From: Candidatus Asbonarchaeaceae archaeon
GTDB taxonomy: Archaea > Nanohalarchaeota > Nanosalinia > Nanosalinales > Nanohalalkaliarchaeaceae
Length of the DNA stretch: 39,167 nt
Direction: 5' to 3'
Assembly: GCA_034190585.1 (NCBI GenBank)
Contig: JAXIOB010000004.1
Coordinates: 1 to 39,167, forward strand
The position numbers and the translations under genes were made by a program. The notes beneath the pieces were generated by a model. That model was not told the DNA's origin and made no database searches. It saw nothing but the letters and a program-made list of their open reading frames with translations. Below, piece after piece: positions 4,891-37,286 of the stretch (position 1 is its first letter; each line of letters opens with the position of its first letter).

Positions 4891-4895
4891 CCAGG

Positions 4896-13115: not shown

Positions 13116-13119
13116 GGTA

Positions 13120-13899: not shown

Positions 13900-13920
13900 A
13901 CCTGGATTTATCTCCGCAGA

Positions 13921-13965: not shown

Positions 13966-13978
13966 CCTTTTAACCGCT

Positions 13979-14827: not shown

Positions 14828-14830
14828 CCT

Positions 14831-15790: not shown

Positions 15791-15814
15791 ACCGTGACCT
15801 AATAACCATCCGAT

Positions 15815-18675: not shown

Positions 18676-19863
18676 ATGGTTAGTGAGAGTGAATTCGAGC
18701 AATACGTAGGACGACCAGGATATTACCAAAGTATGAAGGTGAGTGGGTCTGAGGGGAATTATCTGGTTTCTCAGGAGGGTAGAAAATTTATTGATCTTAT
18801 CGCGGGGTGGTGCGTTGTCAATGCAGGATACGGGCGTGAGGAGATTATCTCTCGCATGGCGGAACATGCCGAACAGGCGGCCTACGTGAAGACGTCCTAT
18901 ATTGACGAGCGAACTGTGCAATTGGCCGAGCGGCTAGCTCAGCTAGCACCTGGCAATCTTCGGCAAACGTTTAGAGTGCCCAGCGGCACCGAAGCTGTAG
19001 AGATTTCAATCAAGGCTGCAAGGCTTTACACTGGGAAAGACACCATAATAAGTAACGAATTGGCGTATCACGGGACAGCGTATGGTGCGATGAGTGCAGG
19101 ATATGATGAACTAGGACAGCCATTCACTCCGTTAGATCCGGGGTTTGATCGGGTACCAGTTCCAGACTTTACAGATGCGTGGTACGACGAGTTTGCGGAG
19201 CGGATGTCGAAGGGGGACGTAGCTGCATACCTCTCAGAGACAGTTCTCACCCATCAGGGAGTCGTTATTCCGCCGAATGATCACTATGAACGGGTGAGTG
19301 AAATCTGTAATGCGAACGATGCACTTCTGATACTGGATGAGGTAGCGAACGGGTTTGGACGGACAGGGAAAATGTTTGCCGCCGACCACTATGGCGTGAC
19401 TCCGGATATAATGGCGCTCGCAAAGGGGATGAGTTCCGGGTACGCTCCCGCTGGTGGGGCTATCATGGCCCCAGATATCGGGGAGGAGATGTCTACCACT
19501 AAAATGAGCGCCTACTCAACGTTTGGCTGGGTTCCCGCAGCTGTTGGAGCTGTGCAGGCGAATATCGACATTTTACAGGACGAAGGACTTTCTACGGGTC
19601 AGGAGAATCTCGGGGATACCCTCGAGGAGGAGCTGATTCGTATCGACGGTGTGCGAGAGGTTCGACGGAAAGGATTGCTTGTTGGCGTCGTGCTTGAGGA
19701 TTCAACTGCCGCCGATGCGCGGGCGGCCGCATCACAGAACGGTGTTCTTGCCGGAACGACCAATGATGGACGCGTTCTCCTTCTTGCCCCGCCGCTCAAC
19801 GTTGAAGAGGCCTATGTGGCGGAAGGCATCCAGCGCCTCGAGAACGCGATCGAGGTGAGGTAA
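18676..19863 (+). CDS. Class III (omega-type) PLP-dependent aminotransferase
   Basis: Motifs are GWCVVNAGYGREEI, PSGTEAVEISIKAAR, LILDEVANGFGRTGKMFA and PDIMALAKGMSSGYAP (PLP lysine context). Confidence 0.9.
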   Translation: MVSESEFEQYVGRPGYYQSMKVSGSEGNYLVSQEGRKFIDLIAGWCVVNAGYGREEIISRMAEHAEQAAYVKTSYIDERTVQLAERLAQLAPGNLRQTFRVPSGTEAVEISIKAARLYTGKDTIISNELAYHGTAYGAMSAGYDELGQPFTPLDPGFDRVPVPDFTDAWYDEFAERMSKGDVAAYLSETVLTHQGVVIPPNDHYERVSEICNANDALLILDEVANGFGRTGKMFAADHYGVTPDIMALAKGMSSGYAPAGGAIMAPDIGEEMSTTKMSAYSTFGWVPAAVGAVQANIDILQDEGLSTGQENLGDTLEEELIRIDGVREVRRKGLLVGVVLEDSTAADARAAASQNGVLAGTTNDGRVLLLAPPLNVEEAYVAEGIQRLENAIEVR

Positions 19864-20508
19864 TTGGAGGCGGTGGTAAACGTAGGAGGAGCGACCTTGC
19901 GTGATTCAGATGTGCTCGGCCCCGTAGTGGAAGAACTGGAGGCTGTTGACGAACAGCTAATACTGGTAGCAGGGGGAGGAGGACTTGTCGATGAAATACG
20001 ACGATTGGATACATCCCATGACTTACCGGCCTCGCTGTGCCACTGGGCTGCTATCAGGTGTATGGACATTAACGGTGAGGTACTGGCGTCCAGATCTCAG
20101 CGGTTTGTGCCCGTCAGCCTTGCGAACCAAATCGAGAGTGCGTGGAGGGAAGACGAAATCCCTGTACTACTTCCGCACGACATTCTAAAAGAGAAAAATC
20201 CGTTGCCTGTGTCGTGGGCGGTGACTTCTGATTCAATTTCTGTGTGGGCAGCCTCCTACTTTGGATTAGACGCTGCGATACTTCTTAAGCAGGTCAAAGG
20301 GATAACCCAGGATGGTGAACTCCGGGGTGAGATTGGAGCGGCCGAGGTACGTGACAGTGATACAGACGTGGTGGATCCGGTCTTGCCGCAGGTTATCATT
20401 CGTCACGGAGTCCAGGCATCAATAGTCTCATCACGCCATCCTGGTCGTGTAGCGAGCGCGATACGCGGTGAGCCGTGTCAGGGGACTCTCATTCTTCCAG
20501 AGGTCTAA
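19864..20508 (+). CDS. Small amino-acid-kinase-fold protein (uridylate-kinase-related); candidate MfnE-like small-molecule phosphate kinase
   Basis: The TTG start directly abuts the aminotransferase stop. It has VVNVGGATL (the KxGGS-type loop), LILVAGGGGLVDEIR and PVSWAVTSDSISVWAASYFGLDAAILLKQVKGI. At 214 aa it is shorter than UMP kinase or IPK. Confidence 0.5.
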   Translation: MEAVVNVGGATLRDSDVLGPVVEELEAVDEQLILVAGGGGLVDEIRRLDTSHDLPASLCHWAAIRCMDINGEVLASRSQRFVPVSLANQIESAWREDEIPVLLPHDILKEKNPLPVSWAVTSDSISVWAASYFGLDAAILLKQVKGITQDGELRGEIGAAEVRDSDTDVVDPVLPQVIIRHGVQASIVSSRHPGRVASAIRGEPCQGTLILPEV

Positions 20509-20638
20509 AGAGGAATCTATTCGGTGTCTATATCAGCCCCAATTTTTCTGGACGTCTTGAAGAATTCTGATTCCCGGCCCAGTATACCGGCTCTGAAGAC
20601 GGAAAAAATGCCGGAAATACACCTAAGATTTAATAATT

Positions 20639-20647
20639 CAGTAGTAG
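20639..20647 (+). promoter_or_regulatory. TATA-like box about 27 nt upstream of TTG 20670
   Basis: tttaataat lies in the 161-nt spacer. Confidence 0.3.
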
Positions 20648-20669
20648 GAACAAAGAATGGAGAGCGCCC

Positions 20670-21500
20670 TTGAATCTGAAGCGTTTCTATAGGGTTTCTG
20701 ATTGGTATCCAAATATGGGGATCGCGGTAGTCGGTGTTCTAAGTGCAGGTGTTGGCGCTGGAAACGTGGTTTCAGCCGCTGTTGCGTTGGTCCAGGTGTT
20801 CCTTGTTCAGCTCCACTCGTTCAGTATGAATAACTATTACGACGCCAGATATTGGAAAGAAAATAACTACATACAGGAGCTATTAGAGCACGGGACGCCT
20901 CGTTGGAAAATATATTTTTACGGCCACATACCTCTTCTCTTGGCGGCGCTCTTTTTACCGGTTTCAGGGATATTCACACTACTTCTTCTGGGATATGCCG
21001 CCCTCTTCTACGTATACCAGGGCCCGCCGCGACTGAAGATGCACTGGGCCTCCTCTCTGGTGCTGAACGCGATCCCGCTCGGACTGATAATATACCTTCA
21101 TCCTTATCTGGTTACGTCAGGACGTCTCGAAACCACAGGAATATTCTTCGCGGTGATGTTCACATTCTACATGGCATTCTTCGAGATCGCACATCAACTT
21201 CAGCACGATAAGATAGAGAGCAGTCATTCATTGGTCGACGTATTTGGGCGGGAAACCTCTGTTAAAATAGGGATGATCGCCCTAACCATCCCTGCGCTAC
21301 TTGGACTGTTGTTGTATTTCGTTGCAACCCTGCCGGCGTCGATAAGTGCAGTAGCGGTAGGATTCACAGCTTTGCGGCTTTATACACTCATCGATATCGG
21401 AACTGATCCCGACGCCGTGCAAACTATAAGAGGCTCTTGGCATAAGTTCTATTCTGCATTTGAGGGCGCAATTTACGTAATTTTACTGGCTGTGATGTAG
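20670..21500 (+). CDS. UbiA-family membrane protein, divergent paralogue 2 with eroded Asp-rich motifs
   Basis: Polytopic. It aligns by eye to paralogue 1: SMNNYYDARYWKEN versus AFNDICDARYTNES, and EIAHQLQHDKIESSHSLVDVFG versus ELLHQVDDFDEDQAAGRSTLAIIIG. The start is TTG; an internal Met lies at 20715. Confidence 0.55.
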   Translation: MNLKRFYRVSDWYPNMGIAVVGVLSAGVGAGNVVSAAVALVQVFLVQLHSFSMNNYYDARYWKENNYIQELLEHGTPRWKIYFYGHIPLLLAALFLPVSGIFTLLLLGYAALFYVYQGPPRLKMHWASSLVLNAIPLGLIIYLHPYLVTSGRLETTGIFFAVMFTFYMAFFEIAHQLQHDKIESSHSLVDVFGRETSVKIGMIALTIPALLGLLLYFVATLPASISAVAVGFTALRLYTLIDIGTDPDAVQTIRGSWHKFYSAFEGAIYVILLAVM

Positions 21501-25028: not shown

Positions 25029-25700
25029 ATGGTAGTTGAGAGATTTGAAAGGGTTTCAATACCACTTTTGGCGGTTTTGGTTATTACTTTCGGCGCTATT
25101 GCAGCGATAAATTCTTCCCCCCAAGTTTCTGATGGCGATAATTTGTCATCACAAGAAATTGTATCTAAAGATCCTAATTTGTCAGCATTCCAGGATCTCG
25201 GATCTCCTGAGGATGGTGAACGGGTGCGTTGGTTGGCGACCGATGAAGTTGGTCCCTGGCACATTGATGGGAGCGCGGGAATCACAAGTTTAGATGCTGG
25301 CAACCGAGTAGTGCTTCATCCGACGGGAGGTAATTGGAGGAATTCAGTTGACTCTGCAATCAGACAAACTGTGGAGCTTCCATCAGGTGAACCGCTGACC
25401 GCTGTTTTAAAGGCTAGGAATCCTGCTTCTGAATGGCGGTCCACGAAAAGTCGCTGTATTAACAGTCTTGTTACACTTGCAGTGGCAAAGAATGATGTGG
25501 GAAGCACCCCTGTTTACAATCGAACTATTGTAGGAGATAAACCAAGAAAGATTACGATGGACGTATCCCGGTTCGCAGGTGAAACTGTGCAGTTGGCCGC
25601 TCTGGCTGACGCTGCAGGTAAAGGATGTGGAAGATGGAACGCTGAATTCACGCTAATATCTTCGCTGTACATACAAACGGAGGAGGACACCGATTTATGA
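25029..25700 (+). CDS. Membrane-anchored secreted protein of unknown function; paralogous module to ORF 22623-23267
   Basis: The N-terminal TM is IPLLAVLVITFGAIAAI. The protein also contains IRQTVELPSGEPLTAV...RC...VSRFAGETVQLAALADAAGKGCGRWNAEF, and its stop overlaps the next start (ATGA at 25697-25700). Confidence 0.5.
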   Translation: MVVERFERVSIPLLAVLVITFGAIAAINSSPQVSDGDNLSSQEIVSKDPNLSAFQDLGSPEDGERVRWLATDEVGPWHIDGSAGITSLDAGNRVVLHPTGGNWRNSVDSAIRQTVELPSGEPLTAVLKARNPASEWRSTKSRCINSLVTLAVAKNDVGSTPVYNRTIVGDKPRKITMDVSRFAGETVQLAALADAAGKGCGRWNAEFTLISSLYIQTEEDTDL

Positions 25701-27595
25701 ATAGGTCAATCGTTCGTGCCTTGCGATTCCGAGGTGTTCAGTTTTTCAAACTGGTCAAGAATCGTTACGACCAATTTAAAGCAGCAGTTTTCAATCATTC
25801 GACCCGTGTTTTTATCTCCGGTATAGTTATCATCGCGCTCGTACTGCGGGCATGGAATCTTGGTCGTCGACCGATGTGGACGGATGAGGCCGTTTACGCC
25901 GTTATGGGCCAGAAGATAGCTAAAGGCGCATTGCTCCCTGTATGGCCGCTTTCTGAGCGTGTATTTGCTGGACAACCGCCGCTAGTTATCCATCTGATGT
26001 CTATTCCGTATCATATAGTCCAGTCTGTTCCGTCGGCAGTACATTTTAGGATGGTAGCAGTATTGGCCGGTGTCGCGACAGTATATGTATGCTATCGAAT
26101 TGGCGCCTCTATATATAATGAGAAGGTGGGCCTGATAGCCGCTTTCCTAATCGCAGTATCGCCTAATCATCTTCTCTACTCACGACAAGCTCTTCCCCAC
26201 TCTATCGGCATCCTTGCCTTCGTCTCAGTCGCATATGTCCTCATCAAATACTGTCGTCACGGAGAAAAAAAGTATATCTGGGCGACGGGAGCAGGGTCGG
26301 TGCTCGCAATAAGTCTCCACTATCTCAATGTTTTACTCATACCGTTGGTAGCTCTAACACTTATTTGGCGGTACATCTCGGAGATCAAAAAATTTAGATA
26401 TCGACGGCGATGGGCCGCTTGGGGTGCGATAAATATCGGATCTGCTGCCGCATATATCATCTATTTCATGAACTTTACTGGGGGCGCACGGACGGGAAGA
26501 AATCCTTTCCGAGGAGAAGTATCCATCCAGAACCCGGTCACTGTGGTATCCGCGCTCTCGGAATTTCTGTCGAGGCAAATCGAATGGATAGTCTCTCTTG
26601 GTATTGCCTCGTATGCAGCGAAAGGAATCGATTTCCTGAGATATTACGGGAATTTATCTAACCTGTTCCTCCCTGTTTTCCTGGCAGGTGTTGGCGTATA
26701 TTTCAGTGCGACGGAGAAAAGGGGTATTCTGTGGTATCCAATCGCCCTGTTTGCTTCAGTATTTGGCGTATTGATTTTCATCGTCTATCCGTTCTACCAG
26801 AAAATAGGGATTTCGCCGGTCCGTTCACACTCATTTCTCATACCGCCAATGTTCATTTTAGCCGCTTATGGTATAGAGAAACTGAACGGATGGAAAAATT
26901 TAGGCTACATCTTATTGGCCTTATTTACAGTCGTGTCGATGCTTCATTTCCCACTTATCGCGACTGGAAATGTAGTGGCGGTGACAACGGAAGGATACCA
27001 TGAGTTCACGGTTGAGATCGGTAAATCTATTTTCAATACGGTCAATACTAAACTGCTGATTATTACAGGGATGAGAGGGCTCGAGTCAAGGATTAGAGCG
27101 CAGGAGTATTTCAAGCAGACATCGTCGATTGTTTGTAGTGGAGAGCATTACAGGCCGTTGTTCTGCTTTTCTCGCCATCCCGTCGGATATAATGATGCGA
27201 AAAATTGGCAACAGCCAGTCAATCATATCTTAACGCAAGGAAAGGTTCCAAATAAGCTAGTTGCTTCCATGTTTGTATCGCATGTCGCGCCTGTCCTGTA
27301 TTATTTGCAACGCGCCGATCCAATTACACGTCTTAGGTATGGATATGATTTCAGCCATCAATATCGTGGAAACGGAAATAACTCGATTCAATCGTTGTCT
27401 TGTAATATAGACAAGCGACAGTGCAATGTTACAGCATGGTTGAGGGGTGAGAAGTCTGTATGGTTCGTTCTGGATAACGTGCGGTCTAAATATCAGTTGA
27501 ACCAGTGGGAAACGGAATATATGAAGAGGCGATGTAAAACCAAAAGATTTTCGTATACTGAGGTGATAAAGTGCACTGGTAATAGGACAGAATGA
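25697..27595 (+). CDS. GT-C fold membrane glycosyltransferase (ArnT / PMT_2 / GT39-like), paralogue 2
   Basis: It has LRAWNLGRRPMWTDEAVYAV (the DE loop motif) and RIGASIYNEKVGLIAAFLIAVSPNHLLYSRQ. The C-terminal domain shares CSGEHYRPLFCFSRHPVGYNDAKNW with paralogue 1. Confidence 0.8.
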   Translation: MNRSIVRALRFRGVQFFKLVKNRYDQFKAAVFNHSTRVFISGIVIIALVLRAWNLGRRPMWTDEAVYAVMGQKIAKGALLPVWPLSERVFAGQPPLVIHLMSIPYHIVQSVPSAVHFRMVAVLAGVATVYVCYRIGASIYNEKVGLIAAFLIAVSPNHLLYSRQALPHSIGILAFVSVAYVLIKYCRHGEKKYIWATGAGSVLAISLHYLNVLLIPLVALTLIWRYISEIKKFRYRRRWAAWGAINIGSAAAYIIYFMNFTGGARTGRNPFRGEVSIQNPVTVVSALSEFLSRQIEWIVSLGIASYAAKGIDFLRYYGNLSNLFLPVFLAGVGVYFSATEKRGILWYPIALFASVFGVLIFIVYPFYQKIGISPVRSHSFLIPPMFILAAYGIEKLNGWKNLGYILLALFTVVSMLHFPLIATGNVVAVTTEGYHEFTVEIGKSIFNTVNTKLLIITGMRGLESRIRAQEYFKQTSSIVCSGEHYRPLFCFSRHPVGYNDAKNWQQPVNHILTQGKVPNKLVASMFVSHVAPVLYYLQRADPITRLRYGYDFSHQYRGNGNNSIQSLSCNIDKRQCNVTAWLRGEKSVWFVLDNVRSKYQLNQWETEYMKRRCKTKRFSYTEVIKCTGNRTE

Positions 27596-27693: not shown

Positions 27694-28582
27694 ATGAACT
27701 GTGAGATATGCGATAGTCCAATGCGAGTAGCCTATTCTGGGAGAGATTGCGTATTTACCAGTACACCGGACCGGAGATTTTCGATTTTTCAGTGCTCAGC
27801 ATGTGGGTTCGGTAAGCGACTTCCTCAACCTGATAATCTCCAGAAGTATTATCCCGAAGAATATTATGATTATTTTTCAGTAATAAGGGAGCGTGAATAC
27901 AGCCTGCGATTTCGATGCTGGTACGAACGCAAATTCTCCCCGAATCTACTGCTTCCTCAGACTAAAGGTAGACTATTAGAAATAGGATTCGGGGGAGGGT
28001 ACAGGCTGGCGGAGTTAGATAGCGATGGGTGGGATGTGGTGGGAATTGATTCGAACGAGGATGCTATTGAGAAAGCTGCTGAAAAGTCTAACGCCGAGCT
28101 GCTACAAGGAACTCTGACTGATACGGAACCGGAATTTTCAGCTGGCGAATTTGACCTGGTATTGATGGAGATGACTCTCGAACATATCAAGAACCCGTTT
28201 CAGGCCCTCAAAGAAATTAAACGGATATTAGATTCGGAAGGATTTGTGGTCATAAAATGTTCAAATATTGACGCCTTATTTCGAAAAATTTTTTCCAAAG
28301 TACTGGCAGGGGTACGATATTCCCAGACACTTTTACTATTACACGCCAAGAGCACTAGAGAGTTTGATGGAAAAAATGGGATTCTAATTGGAAGATGAGA
28401 GCCATGACTACCGCTCGACGCAATTAACTGCAAACTCCAACAAATTCCTTAGTGACGCTTATGATATTAAAATTCGGCCTACTATCTTAGGTGGAATACT
28501 TTTCACATTAGGAATTATGTCCGGTGCGTTAGGTAAACCTAGTTATTTTGTACACCGATGTAGATTAGGTGACAACGATTGA
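27694..28582 (+). pseudogene. Class I SAM-dependent methyltransferase with an N-terminal Cys4 zinc ribbon, disrupted by one frameshift and one in-frame TAA
   Basis: The zinc ribbon is CEICDSPM...CSACGF. SAM motif I is LLEIGFGGGYRLAEL. After FRKIF (an A5T6 run at 28284-28294) the family-typical sequence continues in frame 2 (PKYWQGYDIPRHFYYYTPRALESLMEKMGF). It then hits TAA at 28385-28387 and continues in the same frame as the track ORF 28388-28582. Confidence 0.65.
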
Positions 28583-28653: not shown

Positions 28654-29367
28654 TTACTGATCAAGTCGGCCTAGCATTTCCCTAACGATTTCCGGGTCAA
28701 GCGAAGCTTCTCTATCTGTGCCTGTGCACACAGCGCCGCGGACACCAAAGATATCAAATCCGATGTCACGTATTTTACCAACTTGTTCGATGTCCAGTGA
28801 CCCAGCAGCCGCAGTCGTAAGATTCTGCTGTTTCGCTTCCTCCACGATTTCCTGGAGTGTTTGAGGCTCTGTATGATCGAACAGCGTTTTGCCATCTTTC
28901 TCCGCAGTATCAATCATCACTGCGTCAGCCCCCGATTTGGTAGCTATCGTGGGGAGGTCGACCGGGTTGACGGAGTTAAACCGTTTGTGATCGGCGTACC
29001 CGCCGGCAACGAGCTTGGTTGAAGATCCATTCAGACCCTCGCTGGCAGCTCTGAGAAGCTCTATTGCATCCTCAATCGTTTCTGGTCCTTTCAAACCGAC
29101 CTTAATGTAATCGGGGTTGTACTGCAGTGCACCATGCACCGCTAGGCTAACAGTTCCCGGGAGATGCGGGACGTCCCCAACAGCGATGCTGGTACTAGCT
29201 GTAGAAGGCGCTGCGTCCATGATTCGCTCAATCCTATGCGCTGGTTGCGCTCCCAGCGAACCTTCACCAGGATTTTTGATGTCGATGATATCAGGCGGTG
29301 TATCCGCAATATTGGCTGCCTCTTCTGGAGTCTTGACGGTAACAAGTGATTTCAAAATCCTATTCAC
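28654..29367 (-). CDS. mfnB: (5-formylfuran-3-yl)methyl phosphate (4-HFC-P) synthase, MfnB family (UPF0264/DUF556)
   Basis: Blocks characteristic of MfnB as I recall the M. jannaschii enzyme: PDIIDIKNPGEGSLGA, VGDVPHLPGTVSLAV, DYIKVGL, AGGYADHKR, VMIDTAEKDGKTLFDH, AAAGSL and DIFGVRGAVCTG. The length is 237 aa. The Schiff-base Lys contexts (DIKNP, IKVGL) are retained. Confidence 0.88.
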   Translation of the reverse strand: MNRILKSLVTVKTPEEAANIADTPPDIIDIKNPGEGSLGAQPAHRIERIMDAAPSTASTSIAVGDVPHLPGTVSLAVHGALQYNPDYIKVGLKGPETIEDAIELLRAASEGLNGSSTKLVAGGYADHKRFNSVNPVDLPTIATKSGADAVMIDTAEKDGKTLFDHTEPQTLQEIVEEAKQQNLTTAAAGSLDIEQVGKIRDIGFDIFGVRGAVCTGTDREASLDPEIVREMLGRLDQ

Positions 29368-29368
29368 C

Positions 29369-29971
29369 TCATTGGATTGTGGTTGGAGGCCTCAGCTGAA
29401 ATATGTTGTGGCATCGACCCCCTGCTGATTCTACATACCTCGACGCTGATCGCATCAGTCTCTCGTCTGGATTGGCGGTTGGTCGGCCAGTGTAGTCGCC
29501 GGACCCAGATTTGACTTTTTGCAGTGCGTCATCTATCACTAAGTCATCTCGAAGAGCGAACACAGCTGTCGCGACGGCTACGGATCTGCTCTCACCTGCG
29601 GCGCAGTGAAGGAGAATTTTTCTCTCATTGCCGATTTCTCTTACCACTGCCGACGCAGCACTATCAAACATTGTCTGTGCATTGCATCCGTCTCGTAACG
29701 GACGGTGGATATCCGTGGTAGCTGTGGAACTTGCAGTCAGCGTCACGACCGTCTCAATTCCCAGTTCGTCGTGCCGGCTCTCCTGGCGAGCATCTACCAG
29801 ATCGCCGATGTATAAGTGATCTGAGAGCCGGTCCATAGATCGGCACCGGTCCCGACGAATACGGGCACGTTGAAGCGGTAAGGCGATAGACTCTATGAGC
29901 CAGTTCGACGGCCTCAAATCCATACGAACATATCTCGCCATATATTTATGTATCCTCGGTTGCGCGAACAT
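29369..29971 (-). CDS. Cys-based (HCX5R) dual-specificity / PTP-superfamily phosphatase
   Basis: The active-site loop is LLHCAAGESRSVAVATAVFAL. The protein also contains DHLYIGDL, and its stop lies 1 nt upstream of the mfnB start, so the two genes look co-transcribed. The likely true start is ATG 29836 (MDRLSDHLYIGDL); the 5' extension to 29971 is Arg-rich and dubious. Confidence 0.75.
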   Translation of the reverse strand: MFAQPRIHKYMARYVRMDLRPSNWLIESIALPLQRARIRRDRCRSMDRLSDHLYIGDLVDARQESRHDELGIETVVTLTASSTATTDIHRPLRDGCNAQTMFDSAASAVVREIGNERKILLHCAAGESRSVAVATAVFALRDDLVIDDALQKVKSGSGDYTGRPTANPDERLMRSASRYVESAGGRCHNIFQLRPPTTIQ

Positions 29972-30012: not shown

Positions 30013-31776
30013 ATGGCAGGGATCAGCGGTGTCTGGAGTCCGAACGGAGAATCGGGGAAAGAAGCTATACTACCGATGCTGCGTCCGATGACGAGATCCG
30101 GTAGGAGCTGTGAAGTATTCTCAGCTGAGGATATGCACCTTGGTGTCCGCTCCTCTGAGTCCTGCGGATTCGATGATGGAAACCGTATTGTGGCGGTAGA
30201 CGGAGAAGTATATAACAAAAAAGCACTTTGCGAAACTTCCTTCAGCGACGATGATTCTACTGAGCGAATCGTAGCTCAGGCATACGAGGAACAGGGGGAG
30301 GATCTTTTCAACGAACTAGCGGGAGATTATGCGCTCGCCCTGTTGGACTGTGACCGGTCGAAACTGATTTTAGACACGGGATTAGCGAATAACAAAAATT
30401 TTTTCTACAGTCTCATGGGTTCCGACCTGATTTTCGCTTCCGAGCTCAAGGGGCTGATGCAGGCAGGCGCAATCGACCCATCGATTGACAGGTCGTCCAT
30501 CGGAAATCTTTTGACGTATGGCCACGTTCCAGCCCCCTTTACGCTGTTCGAAGGCCTTCGGAGACTGCCTCCGGGCGCCACTGCGATTACGACTGAGGCA
30601 GGGATGACGCTTGTGCCGGCTGGAGAGCCAAGGCAATACCCGCCTATCGAGGATTTGCCAGCGGCCGTTACATCCGTCGAACAGTCGCTCAAGGGGGCGA
30701 TCAACCGTCGTCTGAGTCAGAGCGATGATATAGGGATGATGCTGTCTGGCGGGATAGACTCTGCACTTCTCACATCATATCTCGATGAGATGGTGTCTGG
30801 TCCAGTGTCGACATTCACCGTGGGATTCGGTGAGGATCAACAGTACGCTCACAGCGTATCTGAACACGTAGGGACCGATCATTCGGAGAAAATCCTGTCG
30901 GCTGATGAGATGATCGGCCAAATACCCAAGGTGCTGTGGTGGCGCGAGTATCCTTCGAAAGATCCGGGGGTTTCACCTCTGTATCACATCGACAGCTTGA
31001 CCGACCGCACGGAGTTGATATGGGGGCAAGGCGCTGAGGAAGTTGTTATGGGGCGGCAAGATTATGTGGCGTTACACGCACTAAGTTCCGTGCCGCGGCG
31101 GCAGGCGATATCGCGCGTGTTCCACGACGCCACCCCTCCAGTGAGAAATCGGTCAAAACTGCACAGGATGTACAACCTTCTCCGTTCCCGCGGCCCGGCC
31201 GAATCGTTTACGACATTCCGCGACTCAGGCCCAAAAGATAGACAGAACTGGGCCGCGAGTGACGTGCATGTAGGGAATACATCACGGGTGCGAGCCCCCA
31301 AGAATATTCACCATCCGTGCAGCCAGTATGGGTGGACATCTCTGATAAACGGGTTCCTGAGCGATGTATTTCCTGCTCCAGAACGCCGGTTGATGAGCCC
31401 GTTTCTTGATTCTCAAGTTCTTGATACAGGTTATCGTATCTCATCACGGTTGCATCTTCGGGATGGACGGCCGCGCTACCTTCTTCGAAAACTTGGGGCA
31501 AAGCGTCTTCCTCAACAAGTCACTGGTCGCGGCCGGGATTCATGGGCGTCTCAGACCCGTAATGTTGTTTTGAATAATTCGTCAATCCTTCTTGCAATCG
31601 CGGATCGTCTCCAGGATCGCAATATTATCACTGAATCAGCGCGGACAATCGTGCAGAGGCAGCCACACCGCTGGGGAAAGAATCTTTGGACATTAGTTAA
31701 TCTTGAACTATTTCTAGAGATTTTCATCGATGAAGACTTCGAGGAGGAGCCGCCCGGGATCGATTATTTTATTTAA
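30013..31776 (+). CDS. Asparagine synthase (AsnB)-family amidotransferase/adenylating enzyme lacking the N-terminal Cys nucleophile
   Basis: The N-terminus is MAGISGVW where canonical enzymes have MCGI. It has VDGEVYN where canonical enzymes have NGEIYN. The PP-loop MLSGGIDSALLTSYL is intact. The length is 587 aa. Confidence 0.85.
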   Translation: MAGISGVWSPNGESGKEAILPMLRPMTRSGRSCEVFSAEDMHLGVRSSESCGFDDGNRIVAVDGEVYNKKALCETSFSDDDSTERIVAQAYEEQGEDLFNELAGDYALALLDCDRSKLILDTGLANNKNFFYSLMGSDLIFASELKGLMQAGAIDPSIDRSSIGNLLTYGHVPAPFTLFEGLRRLPPGATAITTEAGMTLVPAGEPRQYPPIEDLPAAVTSVEQSLKGAINRRLSQSDDIGMMLSGGIDSALLTSYLDEMVSGPVSTFTVGFGEDQQYAHSVSEHVGTDHSEKILSADEMIGQIPKVLWWREYPSKDPGVSPLYHIDSLTDRTELIWGQGAEEVVMGRQDYVALHALSSVPRRQAISRVFHDATPPVRNRSKLHRMYNLLRSRGPAESFTTFRDSGPKDRQNWAASDVHVGNTSRVRAPKNIHHPCSQYGWTSLINGFLSDVFPAPERRLMSPFLDSQVLDTGYRISSRLHLRDGRPRYLLRKLGAKRLPQQVTGRGRDSWASQTRNVVLNNSSILLAIADRLQDRNIITESARTIVQRQPHRWGKNLWTLVNLELFLEIFIDEDFEEEPPGIDYFI

Positions 31777-31803: not shown

Positions 31804-32319
31804 ATGGATATTTCAACATTTGATCGCCTCCTCCGGGATGCCCTTCTCCACCTCCGTGAGACGTCGATAGACAATAAAGGACCGGTCGCTGCAGGACTTG
31901 AATCCCAGGGGAAGACGGTATACGCCGTGTCCGAGAAGAGAGGGGAGAACTGGCTGCATGCTGAACACAAGGTTCTGCAGAAGTTTACGTCCAGGCATGG
32001 AGCCATCGGTGATGACGCCGTCATGGCTGTGTCGTTATCGCCCTGTAAATCTGAAACATTATCACGGCATGGTCCGCCTTGCACTGAGTTACTTCGTGGC
32101 GAAGGTCTTGGAATTGATGTTAGCGTTGACAGGATTCATGTTGGGCTCGTTGACGAGAAGGAGGCAACACTTGATCAATACCGTAGAATGGGGTTCGATA
32201 TCACCTGTACAGAGTCGGAACAGCTTCGAACGTGCTGCCAAAGACTTGAAACGTTCTTCGAACTTCCGCACGAGCAGCGGGATTCCGCATTCATCAACCA
32301 GGCGCTCAGGCAACTGTGA
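31804..32319 (+). CDS. Cytidine/deoxycytidylate (RibD-like) zinc deaminase-fold protein
   Basis: The zinc ligand pattern is HAEHKVL ... SLSPCKSETLSRHGPPCTELL (H-A-E ... PC-x10-C). The length is 171 aa. Confidence 0.65.
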   Translation: MDISTFDRLLRDALLHLRETSIDNKGPVAAGLESQGKTVYAVSEKRGENWLHAEHKVLQKFTSRHGAIGDDAVMAVSLSPCKSETLSRHGPPCTELLRGEGLGIDVSVDRIHVGLVDEKEATLDQYRRMGFDITCTESEQLRTCCQRLETFFELPHEQRDSAFINQALRQL

Positions 32320-32344: not shown

Positions 32345-33742
32345 TCATTCTACAGTTGTATCTCTGACAGCCATTCCGAGGCAACGGAGATCATCTGATT
32401 GGTTCAACTCCTTCGGCGTCAGACATTTCCCGCTAAACTCGAACTGGAGATGGTGCGGCTCCTCGGATGACGGAAGGTCCAGGGATGCGGTGGTCCACGT
32501 GGGAGTCAGGCTGATTGACCGGATTTGCTCTCCGTTATGATAAATATCGACCTCACGATTCTCAGCCGAGGTTCGGAGTTCCACGGAGATTGCTTCTGCG
32601 TCCTCGGTGATAAGTATTCCTGACGATCCAGATGCCCACCGGTGCCCGGTAGCATCCTCAGGATACCAGTTACCTGTAAACATCGCTTGATCATCGACGA
32701 ACGGCCGGTGAAAACTTACCTTGGAGACACCGAAACGTGCGCATCCGTTATTCTTACCCTCTGAACACCTGTCAGATGGACTTCCTGAAGAAAGGGTCAC
32801 GTTGGTTCGCCCAGGATCTAAAAGTAGTTGAGGTGTGACAATCCTCCTCCCTGAGCTGGGAATCCTCCACGAATAGTTTCGGTTTCCTGTATGAAGAGTA
32901 AGGGGTTGGGGTCTGTTCTGCTGTCGCCATGCATTAAATGCCATCCGCGCTCGTACAGGGTCCTTATTAGGGTTTTCTATGGTAATAATCGATCCATTGT
33001 TTGATACCCGTAATGGGATCGGAATGTTCACTACCGAGGGATTTCCGGGGTTGTAATCATCAACAGAAATATCCTTGAGTAGGAAACTCCCGCAACCAGA
33101 TAATTCAATTAGAGGTAATAATCGCTGAACAGGTTCGCAGCGGGAGCTTCGCAGACTCAACGTGTTTTCTCCTTCAAATATTGTGATCGGCACATGTCTC
33201 GTCTCCCAGGTGTTTGAGAAATTGGTTACACTGATTATTCTGTTACCCTGCGCGATTATCATCTGGTTGGCATTCCGAACGGCAGATTGAGATTTGAATG
33301 AAACAAGGACGGTTTGGGACGCATCGCCTGGGACTTCGATTGTTCCATTTTCCCTCATCAACAACCAGTCATTGCCGGAAGGTGATCTCTCGAATCCAGA
33401 TTCGACCTGGGCATAGCCGTGCGGGGTGACCGGGTCGAGTAAAAATATTGAAGAAACCGGGAGGGAGAATACGCTATATCCTATTGGCATCGCCGGATGA
33501 TAACTCTCGTTCAACTTAATCCATCCCTTCCGCGGGACATCTGTCGAAAACGACTGATCCTCCAGCAGAAGAGCCGAGGTGTGGAAATACACGTTTGCAT
33601 CACTCGTGTAGAACTGAGGGGTCACCCGGAGGAACGGCAGAGTTATAATCACAGCTGCCAGGAAAATAATGAACAGGTGCCGCCGTTCCATGAGATATTT
33701 TTTTGGAGCTACAAGATTTAAACCTTTAGATGCTAAATGCAA
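32345..33742 (-). CDS. Membrane-anchored secreted protein with three tandem Cys-terminated modules; function unknown
   Basis: The N-terminal TM is HLFIIFLAAVIITLPF, and the likely true start is ATG 33691 (MERRHLF). The modules end in SGCGSFLLKDISVDD, NNGCARFGVSKVSF and LRCLGMAVRDTTVE. Confidence 0.5.
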   Translation of the reverse strand: MHLASKGLNLVAPKKYLMERRHLFIIFLAAVIITLPFLRVTPQFYTSDANVYFHTSALLLEDQSFSTDVPRKGWIKLNESYHPAMPIGYSVFSLPVSSIFLLDPVTPHGYAQVESGFERSPSGNDWLLMRENGTIEVPGDASQTVLVSFKSQSAVRNANQMIIAQGNRIISVTNFSNTWETRHVPITIFEGENTLSLRSSRCEPVQRLLPLIELSGCGSFLLKDISVDDYNPGNPSVVNIPIPLRVSNNGSIITIENPNKDPVRARMAFNAWRQQNRPQPLTLHTGNRNYSWRIPSSGRRIVTPQLLLDPGRTNVTLSSGSPSDRCSEGKNNGCARFGVSKVSFHRPFVDDQAMFTGNWYPEDATGHRWASGSSGILITEDAEAISVELRTSAENREVDIYHNGEQIRSISLTPTWTTASLDLPSSEEPHHLQFEFSGKCLTPKELNQSDDLRCLGMAVRDTTVE

Positions 33743-35185
33743 CGCATGAATCTTGGCGGCGGGGTATCACTTACAAAGCAGCATGCGCTGTGGGGCGCAC
33801 TTATTGCGGGGGTATATGTTCTTCTCTATGTATTTCTACCGTCGACACCTGTTGGGACGATGTCCCAGTTGCATGGTGATATACGGCTCCTGCTCGGCAT
33901 GCGCGGCTTCAACGTTCTATTGTTTGCACTTACAGCGGTTCTTACCTATGTACTGGCGGATGACGTATTTGGGGATGAACGGGTCGGGTTGCTCGCCGCC
34001 TTGTTAGTAGTTATATCTCCTTTGGCGAACCATGCAATTGTGGCCTGGACCCATGTCCCGGTCGCGTTCCTCACGGTCGTGGCCTTCATTGCATATCGGA
34101 GATTTCTTGATGGGTATGAAACGCGCTGGTTTATACTCGTCGCCGCAGCTGCATCATTCATATTCACAATAAAATATCCTGACGTTGTGCTCATGTTCCC
34201 GATATTAGGGCACATGGCCCTGTTGGTCGTTCGTGATAGGGAATATCAGATTGTACGGAAAAGTATCATCCCGCTCGTAGTTCTATTTTTGGTTATCGCG
34301 CCCACAGCAGCATTCCACTATTCATCATTCGGCAGCGTGGCGACAACGCCCTACCATATGCGACCCCAGGCGCTGCCACCAAATAACAAGCCGAACATCG
34401 CGGTTACCTTTGACCCCGCACGCCTTGTAGACACTGTGCCTGCTATGCTGTTTCGTTTTGACCCGGACATGGAGCTATTACAGCAGAACGTACAGGACTT
34501 CGAATTTGCCGAGTATAAATCAGCTCTGTTCCAATCCTCACCGCCGCTGACTCTAGGGCTCTTTGGATTTATCTTGGCATGGCGACGCAAGGACAACCAG
34601 CGGTTTGTTGCATTGGCTGCGTCGTCATCAGCATTATTGATACTCCTCTATGGCTCATGGATATACTTCAGTGCGGGGTGGACAACTAACATCAGATATT
34701 TGACATCTATAATCCCGCTTCTCGCAGTATTCACTGCATACGCTGTCACAAGACTGGATATAGACTGGCGGCGGCTGCAGCTGTATGGATCAGCCACAGC
34801 GGTTGCGGCCTTTTCGGGTACGGCGTACTATAGTGTACAGGCTCAGGATCTCGTCGCAAAGGCCGGATTAAACACACTGGCATTTGTCACAGCTCTGGTG
34901 CTCTCCATCCTCTTCCTGCTCAATGAAAGCTACGACCGAAACGACCTGCGGATCCTCTTCCACTGCACCTTCGGCGCGGCAATCGGAGTTGGTGGCGCCC
35001 TTGTTTTGGTGCTCGGAAACCTTAGATTATTCAACGCACCGCCAGGGTCATTGCTTATCACCAATATTGAACAAACGCTATTTCTTGGCCTAGCTCTGGC
35101 TGCGGCAATCACGGGCACAGTATATATCCTGTTTGATGAGGTCAGGAGGCGGAGCGCGGTCAGTGAGTGGATAGACAACCGTTGA
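33737..35185 (+). CDS. Polytopic membrane protein, GT-C/ArnT-like putative glycosyltransferase (third in the island)
   Basis: It has about 12 predicted TM helices. It contains LTYVLADDVFGDERVGLLAALLVVISPLANHAIV, which resembles the ArnT/PMT_2 helix 3-4 region. An alternative start is ATG 33746. Confidence 0.5.
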   Translation: MQRMNLGGGVSLTKQHALWGALIAGVYVLLYVFLPSTPVGTMSQLHGDIRLLLGMRGFNVLLFALTAVLTYVLADDVFGDERVGLLAALLVVISPLANHAIVAWTHVPVAFLTVVAFIAYRRFLDGYETRWFILVAAAASFIFTIKYPDVVLMFPILGHMALLVVRDREYQIVRKSIIPLVVLFLVIAPTAAFHYSSFGSVATTPYHMRPQALPPNNKPNIAVTFDPARLVDTVPAMLFRFDPDMELLQQNVQDFEFAEYKSALFQSSPPLTLGLFGFILAWRRKDNQRFVALAASSSALLILLYGSWIYFSAGWTTNIRYLTSIIPLLAVFTAYAVTRLDIDWRRLQLYGSATAVAAFSGTAYYSVQAQDLVAKAGLNTLAFVTALVLSILFLLNESYDRNDLRILFHCTFGAAIGVGGALVLVLGNLRLFNAPPGSLLITNIEQTLFLGLALAAAITGTVYILFDEVRRRSAVSEWIDNR

Positions 35186-35297: not shown

Positions 35298-37286
35298 ATG
35301 GAACTTCGAGGATCTCACCTTTCCCGATACGTCCTGGTGTTTGCACCTGTTTTATTAGCGGCTATCGTTGCTCCCCGTATCGTGGTGTCGCTAGCCGCTG
35401 TTGTGCTTCTCCCAGGATATATTCTTTCGACCAACCTGTTCGACGGAATCTGGAACCGTGGAATCGCTGCAGTTCCGCTTGGCGCGGCGATGCTTGCTAC
35501 GGCTGTTTACGGCGCTAAATTTATCCCTATCCCACTGAACACCGGCACTATAATGGTGTATGTACTGATGTTTATCGTGATTTGGCTGTTCGGCAATCGT
35601 CAGCCGGACCTGATGGAGTACCGACTGACTATCGACCGCAACTCGGTGTATATTTCCGGAATCGCTCTACTTGCCGTGGCGACACGGCTTCTCCCAGTGT
35701 CGAAGATGAATGCGCCATTGTTTGCCGATCCAGCGGTGGAAGGAACGCTTGCCAAACTTATCGCGTCCGCAAGCCAGATTCCGGGTACCTGGGAACCGTT
35801 CGCCCCGATCGCGCTCCATCATCAGCCCGGGTTTGCCAGTATCACTGCCGCGGTCCACATACTGTCTGGTATCCCCGTTCCCCGTGTCATCCTTGTCTTC
35901 GGCGGACTGATCCACGCTCTGTTCCCCCTTGCGGTGTTCACCCTGGCGGACGTGTACCTCGAACGGCGGAAGGCAGTCGTCGCCGGGTTCGTCGCACTTC
36001 TTGCAGCCTTCCCCGCCTACTCATTCGTGGCAGGGATGAACTCCGCCAACCTCGGCTTCGTTCTCGCCGTCGTCCTCGCCGCAGCCGCGGCACGGTTCCT
36101 CCGGGAGGAGAAGGGAACGCCCCCGGTCCTCGCTGTCCTGGCGACGGGCACGGTGCTGGTCCACCCGCTCGGACTCATCGTAGCAGGATTCTTCCTCCTG
36201 CCGGAAACGGTGAGGAAGATGGTCGCCGCGCGGAACACTGGTGATGCGATGCCACGGACGCTTCTCCAGGCCGGTGCGGCTGTGGCAGCTCTGCCGGTGC
36301 TGCTGTCCCTCCCGTATTACTGGCCGATCCTTGGGTCCGGTTCGGCGGCTGCCACGGAACAGTTCGCTATCCAGAGCTCGTATATCCTTTCTGGTTCTGG
36401 GCTGTCTATATTCCACGTCATCGAACCGTTCTACGTCAACGTCCTGAACTGGAGTGGCGGGTGGCACGTCCCGCCGGACGCGGCGCTCCTCGCCATCGTG
36501 TTCAACCCGCTTGCCTCGGCCCTTCTTATCGCCGCAGTTACCGCGGTGTACCGGAACCGGCAGGGGTTGGAATGGCCGGTGGTGGCAGGGGTGGCGTGGT
36601 ACGTGATACTGCTCCTGTTTAGCACGGTGCAGGCCGCCGCCCAGGTGGCGTTCCCGTTTCACGCGTTCATCTACCCGTCCCGCGTGAAATTCCTGTTCGC
36701 CGTCCCGATAGCCCTCCTCTCGGCTGCCGCCCTCCGCGATACCACCGTCCCGTTGCGCGGCCGGCAGGTCCCGGTGCTGCTCGCCGCCGTCCTCCTACTC
36801 AGTCCGGTCAGCCTGTACGCGGTGGCCGGACATCTAAACGAGCTCGCGTCGGACCCTGTCGTGGCGGACACTGACCGCGCCGCCATCGCCTGGCTGGACC
36901 GGAACGTGCCGGAGGACGCGGCGGTGCTGAACACGGTGACCGACGTTGAGGCCGGCGCGTTCATCGGCGGCCCCGCCCAGTGGATTCCTGCGTACACCGG
37001 TAACCCAGTCGTGTTCCCGGCGACGTCCATCACCGGCGACGTGTCACAGCTGCAGGACCGCCGCCGGTTCATGGATGCGATGCGGAACGGGTCAGCGACA
37101 AAATTCCAGGCGCTTCTGGACACGTACAACGTCTCCTACATCTACCTCTCCTCGAACAGCATGGATGGACGGGGCGACGACCACCGGGTCGATCACGAGG
37201 ATATCGCGGTGCTCTGCCAGTGCCGGACCGCGTACAGCAACGAGGACGTCACCGTCCTGGCAACGCCTCGAGCAGGATCGTCCTGA
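35298..37286 (+). CDS. Large polytopic membrane protein with a C-terminal soluble domain; possible GT-C-type enzyme, function unknown
   Basis: A 662-aa ORF with many hydrophobic helices and the C-terminal segment AAIAWLDRNVPEDAAVLNTV...WIPAYTGNPVVFP...VSYIYLSS. I saw no WWDYG motif, so it is not an obvious AglB. Confidence 0.5.
   Translation: MELRGSHLSRYVLVFAPVLLAAIVAPRIVVSLAAVVLLPGYILSTNLFDGIWNRGIAAVPLGAAMLATAVYGAKFIPIPLNTGTIMVYVLMFIVIWLFGNRQPDLMEYRLTIDRNSVYISGIALLAVATRLLPVSKMNAPLFADPAVEGTLAKLIASASQIPGTWEPFAPIALHHQPGFASITAAVHILSGIPVPRVILVFGGLIHALFPLAVFTLADVYLERRKAVVAGFVALLAAFPAYSFVAGMNSANLGFVLAVVLAAAAARFLREEKGTPPVLAVLATGTVLVHPLGLIVAGFFLLPETVRKMVAARNTGDAMPRTLLQAGAAVAALPVLLSLPYYWPILGSGSAAATEQFAIQSSYILSGSGLSIFHVIEPFYVNVLNWSGGWHVPPDAALLAIVFNPLASALLIAAVTAVYRNRQGLEWPVVAGVAWYVILLLFSTVQAAAQVAFPFHAFIYPSRVKFLFAVPIALLSAAALRDTTVPLRGRQVPVLLAAVLLLSPVSLYAVAGHLNELASDPVVADTDRAAIAWLDRNVPEDAAVLNTVTDVEAGAFIGGPAQWIPAYTGNPVVFPATSITGDVSQLQDRRRFMDAMRNGSATKFQALLDTYNVSYIYLSSNSMDGRGDDHRVDHEDIAVLCQCRTAYSNEDVTVLATPRAGSS

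Follow-up and report, generated by a model that had tools for sequence, protein, structure and literature searches.

A candidate MfnB–MfnE–UbiA gene module of Nanohaloarchaeota that may build membrane-linked furans

The joining of two triose phosphates to a furan in the one active site of MfnB has, to our knowledge, been tied so far to just two cofactors, the methanofuran of methanogens and the methylofuran of methylotrophs. The corresponding genes of Methanocaldococcus jannaschii are MJ1099 for MfnB, MJ0458 for MfnE and MJ0840 for MfnF. In the mycobacterial decaprenyl-phosphoryl-ribose/arabinose pathway, the UbiA-family decaprenylphosphoryl-phosphoribose (DPPR) synthase Rv3806c (PDB 8J8J) transfers a non-prenyl, diphosphate-activated donor to a polyprenyl-phosphate acceptor. 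The phosphatase Rv3807c, which is of the PAP2 type, and glycosyltransferase-C (GT-C) arabinosyltransferases then deliver the product to the envelope. For the methylofuran pathway of Methylorubrum extorquens, it has been reported that Orf22, Orf21 and Orf9 are homologues of MfnB, MfnE and MfnF, and that the Orf17 family is required at an unassigned early step (Hemmann et al., PMC8141765). Here we analyze an mfnB-like gene (positions 28654-29355, minus strand) and its surroundings in a stretch of 39,167 nucleotides from contig JAXIOB010000004.1, called "the window" below. The proteins of the window were deposited as those of a Candidatus Nanohaloarchaea archaeon metagenome-assembled genome (MAG), in agreement with an earlier note on this DNA, which had judged the genome halophile-like and not that of a methanogen. 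As far as we know, Nanohaloarchaeota are fermentative symbionts without one-carbon (C1) pathways.

In this setting, the mfnB-like gene belongs to a conserved and hitherto undescribed set of genes. The same low-GC island carries a class-III aminotransferase, an MfnE-like kinase and a divergent membrane transferase of the UbiA superfamily, termed UbiA2, in a single block (18676-21500), and mfnB is thus not the lone oddity that it had seemed to be. Comparison of genomes indicates that MfnB, MfnE and UbiA2 form a tight module, to which either a member of the hisAF_rel family or an aminotransferase is added. We propose that the module makes 5-(aminomethyl)-3-furanmethanol diphosphate (F1-PP), and that UbiA2, in place of MfnF, moves the aminomethylfuran unit to a membrane acceptor, outside classical methanofuran synthesis. 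We give this proposal an even chance of being correct. The literature that we searched contains no description of mfnB in Nanohaloarchaeota or of a linkage among MfnB, MfnE and UbiA.

The open reading frame (ORF) found mechanically for mfnB extends from a GTG at 29367 (28654-29367, minus strand) and encodes 237 amino acids. All of its homologues begin MK(S/A)L(I/V)T. This sequence falls in register with a TTG at 29355, where we accordingly place the start; the resulting protein of 233 amino acids equals NCBI MDY6761494.1. A T6 run lies ~20 nucleotides past the stop codon. The protein matches Pfam PF04476 (4HFCP_synth) over profile positions 2-227 of 228 with 227.8 bits (E 1.9e-67, cut-off 22.4) and, by phmmer, the MJ1099 structures 4RC1 and 4U9P with an E value of 3.3e-49, a similarity that is far beyond chance. 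All six conserved blocks quoted in the earlier note are found in the translation, so that the clear homology to MfnB asserted there is confirmed. This homology itself is not new, as NCBI already labels the protein MfnB.

The residues implicated in catalysis are also retained. MJ1099 residues D25, K27, K85, D151, K155 and R217 correspond to D29, K31, K89, D153, K157 and R219 of the window protein, where the numbers of the essential residues D25, K85 and D151 come from counting on the MJ1099 sequence. A loss of catalytic Lys or Asp residues, which had been raised as grounds for doubt, is therefore not seen in the alignment with MJ1099, and all six residues are invariant among the 21 aligned sequences of the closest relatives of the window protein. 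Two Lys and two Asp residues are essential in MfnB, and Lys27 forms a Schiff base (PMC6604932), whereas roles in binding or in the catalytic reaction are ascribed to K155 and R217 (PMC11365854). The gene is thus real and probably encodes an active synthase (EC 4.2.3.153) that converts two molecules of D-glyceraldehyde-3-phosphate to 4-(hydroxymethyl)-2-furancarboxaldehyde phosphate (4-HFC-P).

The linkage of MfnB to UbiA2 was examined in both directions. In the forward direction, a GTDB-wide scan was conducted with an alignment of the MfnB clade, and the best 80 loci were inspected. The five loci most similar to the window MfnB (L012-L016, from four species of Nanohaloarchaeota and one of Omnitrophota) are exactly those that have UbiA2 beside mfnB. 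UbiA2 is beside mfnB in none of the other 75, which include loci of methanogens, Bathyarchaeota, Altiarchaeales, Hadarchaeota, Asgard archaea and proteobacteria. The reverse scan of metagenomes, seeded with UbiA2, produced 19 loci, 18 of which have an adjacent gene for MfnB, MfnE or hisAF_rel; the exception is the weakest match.

After pooling and removal of duplicates, 25 UbiA2 loci from Nanohaloarchaeota, Omnitrophota and uncultured lineages were available. MfnB is present at 20 of these and an MfnE-like kinase likewise at 20, and the loci that lack one or the other are short contigs plus that one exception, L110. Fifteen loci carry hisAF_rel and four carry the class-III aminotransferase, and the two never occur together. 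Other partners are an AsnB-like protein (seven loci), a PaaK-like adenylating enzyme (five, for a combined 12) and a dual-specificity phosphatase (two). Because hisAF_rel (TIGR00734) is the Orf17/MJ0703 family, whose requirement for methylofuran synthesis was established in M. extorquens (PMC8141765), its presence ties the module to furan chemistry. At L001 (genome QJJ-7), L004/L005 and L092, the genes for the aminotransferase, the MfnE-like kinase and UbiA2 lie directly 5' of mfnB, with only a PaaK-like gene intervening in L001 and L004/L005.

The mutual exclusion of hisAF_rel and the aminotransferase may be a clue to the step performed by Orf17/MJ0703, possibly an amination, or it may mean that an aminotransferase is encoded elsewhere in the genomes that have hisAF_rel. 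If the scheme proposed below is correct, the pattern would offer a handle on the missing function of this family.

In the window, the block of partner genes begins with the class-III (omega) aminotransferase (18676-19863, plus strand; Aminotran_3, 254 bits). Its best NCBIfam matches are aldehyde and omega-amine transaminases (ArgD, putrescine aminotransferase and PigE), all under their cut-offs, and the gene lies directly 5' of that for the MfnE-like kinase also in L001, L005 and L092. We predict that it is a non-orthologous stand-in for MfnC that converts 4-HFC-P to the amine phosphate F1-P. The MfnE-like kinase (19864-20508, plus strand) has the AA_kinase fold, and its sole NCBIfam match is the MfnE model NF040622, which it covers from profile position 3 to 203 of 211 with 94.9 bits, under the cut-off of 300. 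With this model, the orthologue at L001 reaches 137 bits and that at L011 178 bits. The predicted reaction is the phosphorylation of F1-P to F1-PP. No NCBIfam match to MfnF, MfnA, MfnC or MfnD was detected among the 17 island proteins of the window that were scanned. In L092, the aminotransferase region (8102-9360) is split into three ORFs, which reflects either a pseudogene or an assembly error.

UbiA2 (20670-21500, plus strand) is an integral membrane protein that is recognized by the Pfam UbiA model PF01040 (39.7 bits against 34.2), as are eight of nine relatives that were compared. An AlphaFold2 model (predicted local distance difference test, pLDDT, 85; predicted TM-score, pTM, 0.86) is most similar in Foldseek to digeranylgeranylglyceryl phosphate (DGGGP) synthase (7BPU, TM-score 0.80), followed by AfUbiA (4TQ4, 0.72) and the mycobacterial membrane phosphoribosyltransferase (PRTase) 8J8J (0.69); ApUbiA and UBIAD1 are also matched. 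Members of the family usually have two Asp-rich motifs (NDxxDxxxD and DxxxD) that hold Mg2+ and diphosphate. The UbiA2 subfamily has instead an N-terminal FYR, a first motif reduced to SFxxN[DN]xxD, and ExxHQxxH at the site of the second. A word-indexed homologue search was too insensitive for our purposes, since it returned only the query itself for the phosphatase and seven proteins for UbiA2, and was replaced by an exhaustive search of representatives together with scans of loci. Among 1.84 billion proteins, only 73 representatives match UbiA2 at E<=1e-3 and 16 at E<=1e-30, which marks it, by sequence criteria, as a tiny and distinct subfamily.

The island also encodes a paralogue, UbiA1 (15815-16708), that is 25% identical to UbiA2 and has related FYR/LYR, SFxFNDxxD and ExxHQ motifs. 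Its gene follows that of an IdsA-like prenyl diphosphate synthase and overlaps the start of a PMT_2 gene.

The scheme that we propose assigns predicted substrates and products to gene families, catalytic residues, linkages and an island structure that are read directly from the sequences. MfnB would first make 4-HFC-P. The class-III aminotransferase would then aminate the aldehyde to yield F1-P, a step for which it is plausible because the amination of aldehydes is a reaction of the class-III kind; in most other lineages with the module, a gene of the hisAF_rel/Orf17 type is found in its stead. The MfnE-like kinase would produce F1-PP, and UbiA2, replacing the soluble MfnF, would use F1-PP as a diphosphate-activated electrophile to alkylate a membrane-bound acceptor. 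Work on MfnF by Wang et al. in 2015 reportedly showed that F1-PP ionizes to a furan-stabilized carbocation in the manner of a prenyl diphosphate; thus, an enzyme of the UbiA type may be a chemically natural substitute. Because UbiA2 is an integral membrane protein, a lipophilic acceptor is most likely. This acceptor could be a polyprenyl phosphate, as for DPPR synthase with phosphoribosyl diphosphate (PRPP), or a lipid hydroxyl, as for DGGGP synthase.

Later steps are more loosely defined. AsnB-like proteins that lack Cys2 and PaaK-like proteins recur and seem to alternate, which suggests an ATP-dependent formation of an amide, plausibly on the F1 amine, and a methyltransferase might also tailor the lipid-linked aminomethylfuran. 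PMT_2 and GT-C enzymes use donors linked to polyprenyl phosphate, and those near the module probably bring the product to the cell envelope. Such an export is consistent with the recurrence of PMT_2/GT-C enzymes, Wzx-type flippases and glycosyltransferases in the vicinity. The dual-specificity phosphatase would have an accessory part, in tailoring or maturation, in the sub-module that it forms with the AsnB-like protein and the methyltransferase, and would most likely remove phosphate from a phosphorylated pathway intermediate; this is the weakest step of the scheme. In its broadest form, the proposal is that ultrasmall uncultured prokaryotes, including Nanohaloarchaeota and Omnitrophota, make a new class of aminomethylfuran conjugates of the membrane or envelope from F1-PP by means of a dedicated UbiA-type "furfuryl transferase." We advance this version tentatively, and somewhat short of an even chance.

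Several points weigh against these proposals. In UbiA2 the canonical second Asp-rich motif, DxxxD, gives way to ExxHQxxH, and the first motif lacks its third Asp; for this reason Mg2+-dependent diphosphate chemistry is not assured. MfnB, MfnE and hisAF_rel all score under the NCBIfam equivalog cut-offs, and the branches of the MfnB trees carry no support values. Envelope islands of archaea often carry PMT_2 genes, and those near the module might be bystanders; phmmer detects them at only four of the 25 loci, to which Pfam adds L001/L013 and L016. The phosphatase is present at only two of 25 loci and resembles protein phosphatases. The argued lack of a C1 role is drawn from the flanks that were examined and from general knowledge of the phylum. 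Finally, all protein functions considered here are predictions from sequence and gene neighborhood.

The phosphatase gene (29369-29923, minus strand) is directly 5' of mfnB and encodes a small VH1-like dual-specificity phosphatase (DSP) of 184 amino acids. The ORF reaches 29971 (29369-29971, minus strand, 200 amino acids), and the start is most likely the ATG at 29923, because the basic N-terminus that begins there (MDLRPSNW..RIRR) is conserved in the orthologue at L014. The NCBI call, MDY6761495.1 (155 amino acids), starts at an internal Met at 29836 and drops this conserved N-terminal segment of 29 residues (29836-29923). A TATA-like, AT-rich element (CATAAATATA, minus strand, 29941-29950) resides in the 89-bp region between the divergent phosphatase and AsnB-like genes. 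It is located 18-27 nucleotides 5' of the ATG, a distance that would fit a leaderless archaeal transcript.

Translation and profile comparisons agree with the earlier assignment of this protein to the fold of protein tyrosine phosphatases and DSPs. The score with Pfam DSPc (PF00782), 32.2 bits, is just under the gathering score of 33.5, and the L014 orthologue, which is 41% identical, scores 61.5 bits. Both proteins have the P-loop HCAAG(E/Q)SRS (HCAAGESRS in the window) and a general-acid region PL(R/K)DG (PLRDG in the window) whose Asp is ~30 residues upstream. An AlphaFold2 model built from the single sequence has a pLDDT of 32, too low for use. When a profile of the two sequences was searched against the PDB, the matches (E 1e-10 to 1e-8) were DUSP21 (1e-10), VH1 (~1e-9), DUSP18 and DUSP22. 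These are atypical protein DSPs, and the hint that the enzyme might belong with lipid- or glucan-phosphate phosphatases finds no support in this search.

The phosphatase could therefore be a regulatory protein Tyr/Ser/Thr phosphatase, or could serve the pathway of the AsnB-like gene, and might have been placed 5' of mfnB by rearrangement of the island. We regard this alternative as a serious if somewhat doubtful one. Among all loci examined, a DSP is found only in the window and L014, and coupling to MfnB, as suggested earlier, is thus specific to the window. At L014 the DSP is 2.3 kb from mfnB and on the opposite strand, and hence is not co-transcribed with it, whereas the divergent pairing of the DSP with an AsnB-like gene is retained. 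A homologue of the window methyltransferase follows the AsnB-like gene there as well. To judge from these two loci, the conserved partner of the phosphatase is the divergent AsnB-like gene plus the methyltransferase, and not mfnB. Moreover, relative to L092, mfnB of the window has been inverted, separated by 7 kb from its partners (the aminotransferase, MfnE and UbiA2) and placed behind the phosphatase.

Other observations keep the phosphatase close to furan synthesis. Each of the two DSP genes has an mfnB no more than 3 kb away, and the two mfnB genes belong to one clade. In the window, the phosphatase stop codon (29369-29371) is separated from the mfnB TTG by 13 nucleotides, rather than the single nucleotide counted before the start was moved, and this gap contains a Shine-Dalgarno-like sequence, GAGGTGA, and no terminator. 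Co-transcription of the two genes, as predicted earlier, is thus well supported by the sequence arrangement. At the Omnitrophota locus L015, an unrelated phosphatase of the haloacid dehalogenase (HAD) type is directly 3' of mfnB, a weak hint of a recurring need for dephosphorylation. The earlier note was also justified in placing the enzyme outside the known Mfn pathway, which includes no phosphatase. We consider a pathway phosphatase and an unrelated or regulatory protein phosphatase about equally likely, and in either case the enzyme is a minor accessory of the module. Two proteins encoded 3' of mfnB in L001 and L004 (u201 and u222) were considered as cryptic phosphatases and rejected, since they have neither an HCX5R nor a HAD motif, carry a hydrophobic N-terminal segment and are homologous to the window gene at 25029-25700.

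The AsnB-like gene (30013-31776, plus strand; Asn_synthase, 129.5 bits; GATase_7) is divergent from that of the phosphatase and encodes a PP-loop synthetase without the catalytic N-terminal Cys. Its protein starts with MAGISGV, has no Cys at position 2 or 5, as opposed to the Cys2 of AsnB, and keeps the PP-loop SGGIDS. Cys2 is replaced also in L011, L014, L099, L102 and L109, and in L099, L102 and L014 a Cys occurs three residues farther on; this shifted Cys would need N-terminal processing to serve as a nucleophile. The N-termini of the module-linked proteins read MAGISGV, MAGIAGV, MAGICGI, MSGICGI and MGKICGV, with the PP-loop SGG(I/L)DS retained, and the three full-length sequences that were aligned have in common a unique C-terminus, EEPPxI(D/E)xF. 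Orthologues adjoin mfnB in the Omnitrophota locus L011 (10812-12608, 31% identity) and the Nanohaloarchaea locus L014 (5844-7598, 39%), and other loci have the PaaK-like enzyme instead.

Our proposal of a membrane-linked product must also be weighed against the synthesis of a true C1 carrier of the methanofuran or methylofuran type. In this case, UbiA2 would be an alternative MfnF that forms an ether to an acceptor containing tyramine or tyrosine, and the AsnB-like or PaaK-like protein would be a ligase of the MfnD/MyfA type. MfnB, MfnE and hisAF_rel are known only from methanofuran and methylofuran synthesis (PMC8141765), and enzymes of the UbiA family do form ethers, as exemplified by DGGGP synthase, the closest structural match of UbiA2. 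The AsnB-like and PaaK-like proteins, which are ATP-dependent activators of carboxylates, could form the amides of a side chain. However, the flanks of all 25 UbiA2 loci contain no homologues of Mch, Fhc/Fwd (including FhcC-like proteins), Fmd, Ftr, MptA, CitG, RimK/MptN or other genes related to tetrahydromethanopterin (H4MPT). Such homologues do surround mfnB in bacteria that use the cofactor, as in Halanaerobium L031, Desulfovibrionaceae L058 and Hakubella L091.

The genes that do recur near the module are those of envelope synthesis. PMT_2 genes are found in the window (three copies) and in L001, L011, L016, L101 and L106, Wzx-type flippases in L007 and L016, and GT1/GT4 glycosyltransferases in L004 and L007, as well as in L009, a locus of the same MfnB clade without UbiA2. 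In L001 and L004, the gene immediately 3' of mfnB encodes a homologue (E 1e-7 to 1e-8) of u223 (25029-25700, plus strand), a small window protein with a hydrophobic N-terminal segment, and the L001 copy precedes a PMT_2 gene. An integral membrane transferase in an envelope context is unexpected for a soluble cofactor, and the hosts are Nanohaloarchaeota with small genomes and Omnitrophota. Synthesis of a C1 carrier is for these reasons unlikely.

The Halanaerobium locus deserves mention apart from this argument. In Halanaerobium congolense DSM 11287 (L031:5268-15316), mfnB and mfnE are part of a full H4MPT/methylofuran-type C1 cluster with genes for FhcC-like, Mch, RimK/MptN-like, CitG, MptA-like, pterin-binding and HPPK proteins. 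Such a cluster is unexpected for this genus, and the tractable organism, a cultured halophilic fermenter, could be used to study MfnB outside methanogens.

A further alternative is that the MfnB clade performs some other reaction of the class-I aldolase type, for example on a sugar phosphate for glycans, and that no furan is made. The clade reaches none of the NCBIfam equivalog cut-offs for MfnB (for the window protein, 225.7 against 341 bits with NF002573 and 211 against 304 with NF002575), from which we conclude that the window MfnB is a divergent member of the family. Beside the GDVP motif, the clade consistently has N/H-L where methanogen MfnB proteins have Y-K, and its genes are found among those for glycans. 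Nevertheless, every residue reported as essential is invariant in the clade, and identity to biochemically characterized proteins of the MJ1099 type is 42-45% over the full length. Furthermore, mfnB is nearly always accompanied by the MfnE-like kinase and usually by hisAF_rel, both of which are specific to the furan branch. A change of reaction is thus distinctly improbable. In L004 (3131-3622) and L005 (4602-5093), which represent one nanohaloarchaeal lineage, a truncated second MfnB copy of 163 amino acids lies directly 5' of the full-length mfnB.

The origin of the gene is best considered together with the island in which it resides. The flanks of the window have 60-67% GC, and the segment from ~12.0 to 35.8 kb has 41-55%; the GC profiles and comparison with L092 place the island at 12014-35800, next to the RFC gene. 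L092, which is from the sister MAG (GCA_034190525.1) and is also nanohaloarchaeal, has in its left flank the same genes for a type IV pilus/archaellum-type ATPase, membrane proteins, a Laminin_G protein and RFC, with 76% nucleotide identity to the window. This identity to a Nanohaloarchaea MAG whose corresponding region has 66-73% GC rules out the Halobacteria as the source of the high-GC flanks. In L092, RFC is followed directly by genes for the aminotransferase, the MfnE-like kinase, UbiA2 and MfnB, all with 66-73% GC. The best-conserved flank proteins (the ATPase, membrane proteins and RFC) are ~82-91% identical between the two genomes, the products of surface-protein genes between them 49-76%, and the furan-cluster proteins only 43-66%. 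Because the flanks are well conserved and the cluster proteins at the same site are not, we conclude that the furan cluster of the window has been replaced by a divergent version and enlarged, at a conserved position adjacent to RFC. The island looks like the swap-in of another nanohaloarchaeal-type allele, and such replacement at a conserved position is typical of islands for surface structures.

The right breakpoint lies inside a DUF6541 gene (35298-37286), in which the first ~500 bp have 53% GC and the remainder 64-67%. Neither a tRNA nor an integrase gene marks the borders of the island.

In neighbor-joining trees, which were not bootstrapped, nanohaloarchaeal MfnB proteins are monophyletic; they group with sequences of Omnitrophota, Elusimicrobia and uncultured organisms, and the MfnB proteins of methanogens are placed separately. 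None of the closest relatives of the window MfnB is from a methanogen. Since the window protein is inside this monophyletic group, nothing points to a recent transfer out of a methanogen, and the halophilic methanogen suspected earlier as the donor is not borne out. An RFC-adjacent furan cluster is present in at least three nanohaloarchaeal genomes (the window, L092 and L001). The gene is thus, as the earlier note had allowed, a recurrent gene of its lineage, although no known unrelated role accompanies it. Despite the atypical composition of the island, the intact ORF with all of its catalytic residues, these trees and the shared RFC-adjacent site make it highly improbable that mfnB is a functionless relic gained recently from a halophilic methanogen.

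The island contains further genes. At the left end (12039-18498), Pfam and NCBIfam scans identify genes for isoprenoids and polyprenyl-phosphate sugars: GT2-GtrA (12039-13115, minus strand), isopentenyl phosphate kinase (13120-13899, minus strand; IPPK_Arch, 176.7 bits against a cut-off of 120), GT2 (13979-14827), the IdsA-like prenyl diphosphate synthase (14831-15790), UbiA1 and PMT_2 (16705-18498). Between UbiA2 and mfnB, the u223 gene is followed by that of a PMT_2/GT-C membrane transferase (25697-27595, plus strand; PMT_2, 44 bits) and by the S-adenosylmethionine-dependent methyltransferase gene (27694-28398, plus strand; Methyltransf_11 and Methyltransf_23), which is convergent with mfnB. 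Toward the right end are a deaminase-like gene (31804-32319; Pfam), a gene for a protein of 465 amino acids without an assigned family (32345-33742, minus strand), which has weak homologues near mfnB in L004/L005 and L016, and the third PMT_2 gene (33737-35185; Pfam).

Two further observations concern the biology of nanohaloarchaea. Nanohaloarchaea are generally thought to rely on their hosts for lipids, and an archaeal isopentenyl phosphate kinase is nonetheless encoded near UbiA1. Directly 5' of the island (2920-10804), and syntenic with L092, are genes for a type IV pilus/archaellum-like secretion ATPase, two membrane-platform proteins, a protein of 653 amino acids and a concanavalin-like Laminin_G_3 surface protein. 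This set may represent machinery for adhesion to host cells.

If the proposed scheme is correct, these host-dependent lineages, which have small genomes and no apparent C1 metabolism, would have a second biological use for the furan building block, probably at the membrane or cell surface, the place at which such symbionts meet their hosts. The MfnB/MfnE furan branch would for the first time serve a purpose other than C1 cofactors, and the UbiA superfamily would gain a new type of donor, with UbiA2 as a concrete candidate for a new reaction. The island that holds the module is a hypervariable replacement island; like many surface structures, the module may therefore be subject to diversifying selection. 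A practical caution also follows: matches to mfnB and mfnE alone are insufficient to score "methanofuran biosynthesis" in MAGs of DPANN archaea or Omnitrophota.

Compared with the methanofuran pathway of M. jannaschii (MfnA-F), the window has an MfnB with all catalytic residues that is 45% identical to methanococcal MfnB and an MfnE-like kinase of the AA_kinase fold. The order of conversions, from furan aldehyde phosphate to amine, diphosphate and transfer, could be the same, and an aminotransferase step is plausible in the window. However, homologues of MfnA, MfnC, MfnD and MfnF are missing from the scanned proteins of the island; in the place of the class-I MfnC there is a class-III aminotransferase, and in that of MfnF an integral membrane enzyme of the UbiA family. 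The window host is also not a methanogen, and the neighboring genes are those of the envelope and not of C1 metabolism. The methylofuran pathway of M. extorquens (PMC8141765) resembles most UbiA2-type loci in the clustering of homologues of MfnB, MfnE and Orf17/hisAF_rel, a trio that is thus seen beyond methanogens too. In methylotrophs, and likewise in Halanaerobium L031, these genes are part of an "archaeal-like" H4MPT/Fhc cluster that has no counterpart at UbiA2-type loci, and the window differs further in having an aminotransferase and no hisAF_rel.

The proposed transfer reaction has its nearest parallels elsewhere. As in the mycobacterial DPPR pathway, the island combines a UbiA-superfamily enzyme, whose model can be superimposed on 8J8J, with a phosphatase and PMT_2/GT-C enzymes. 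The parallel is confined to architecture: F1-PP, and not PRPP, would be the donor, the window phosphatase has a DSP fold, and UbiA2 resembles AfUbiA and DGGGP synthase more closely than it does the PRTase. In both structure and profile searches, DGGGP synthase (PDB 6M31/7BPU) and AfUbiA (PDB 4TQ3) match UbiA2 best, and the formation of an ether by displacement of diphosphate, as catalyzed by DGGGP synthase, is the same bond chemistry as that of MfnF. In contrast to these enzymes, with which it has 13-20% identity, UbiA2 carries ExxHQxxH where they have the second Asp-rich motif, and its gene is linked to those of MfnB and MfnE and not to genes of lipid-core synthesis. The phosphatase shares with the atypical DSPs (poxvirus VH1 and DUSP18, DUSP21 and DUSP22) the HCX5R(S) P-loop, the upstream Asp as general acid and a size of ~180 amino acids, and is distinguished from them by its archaeal origin, its basic N-terminal extension (MDLRPSNW...RIRR), its location in a biosynthetic island and its pairing with an AsnB-like gene. 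Overall, the window system differs from the methanofuran and methylofuran pathways in its terminal transferase, the class of its aminotransferase, its gene context and the type of its host.

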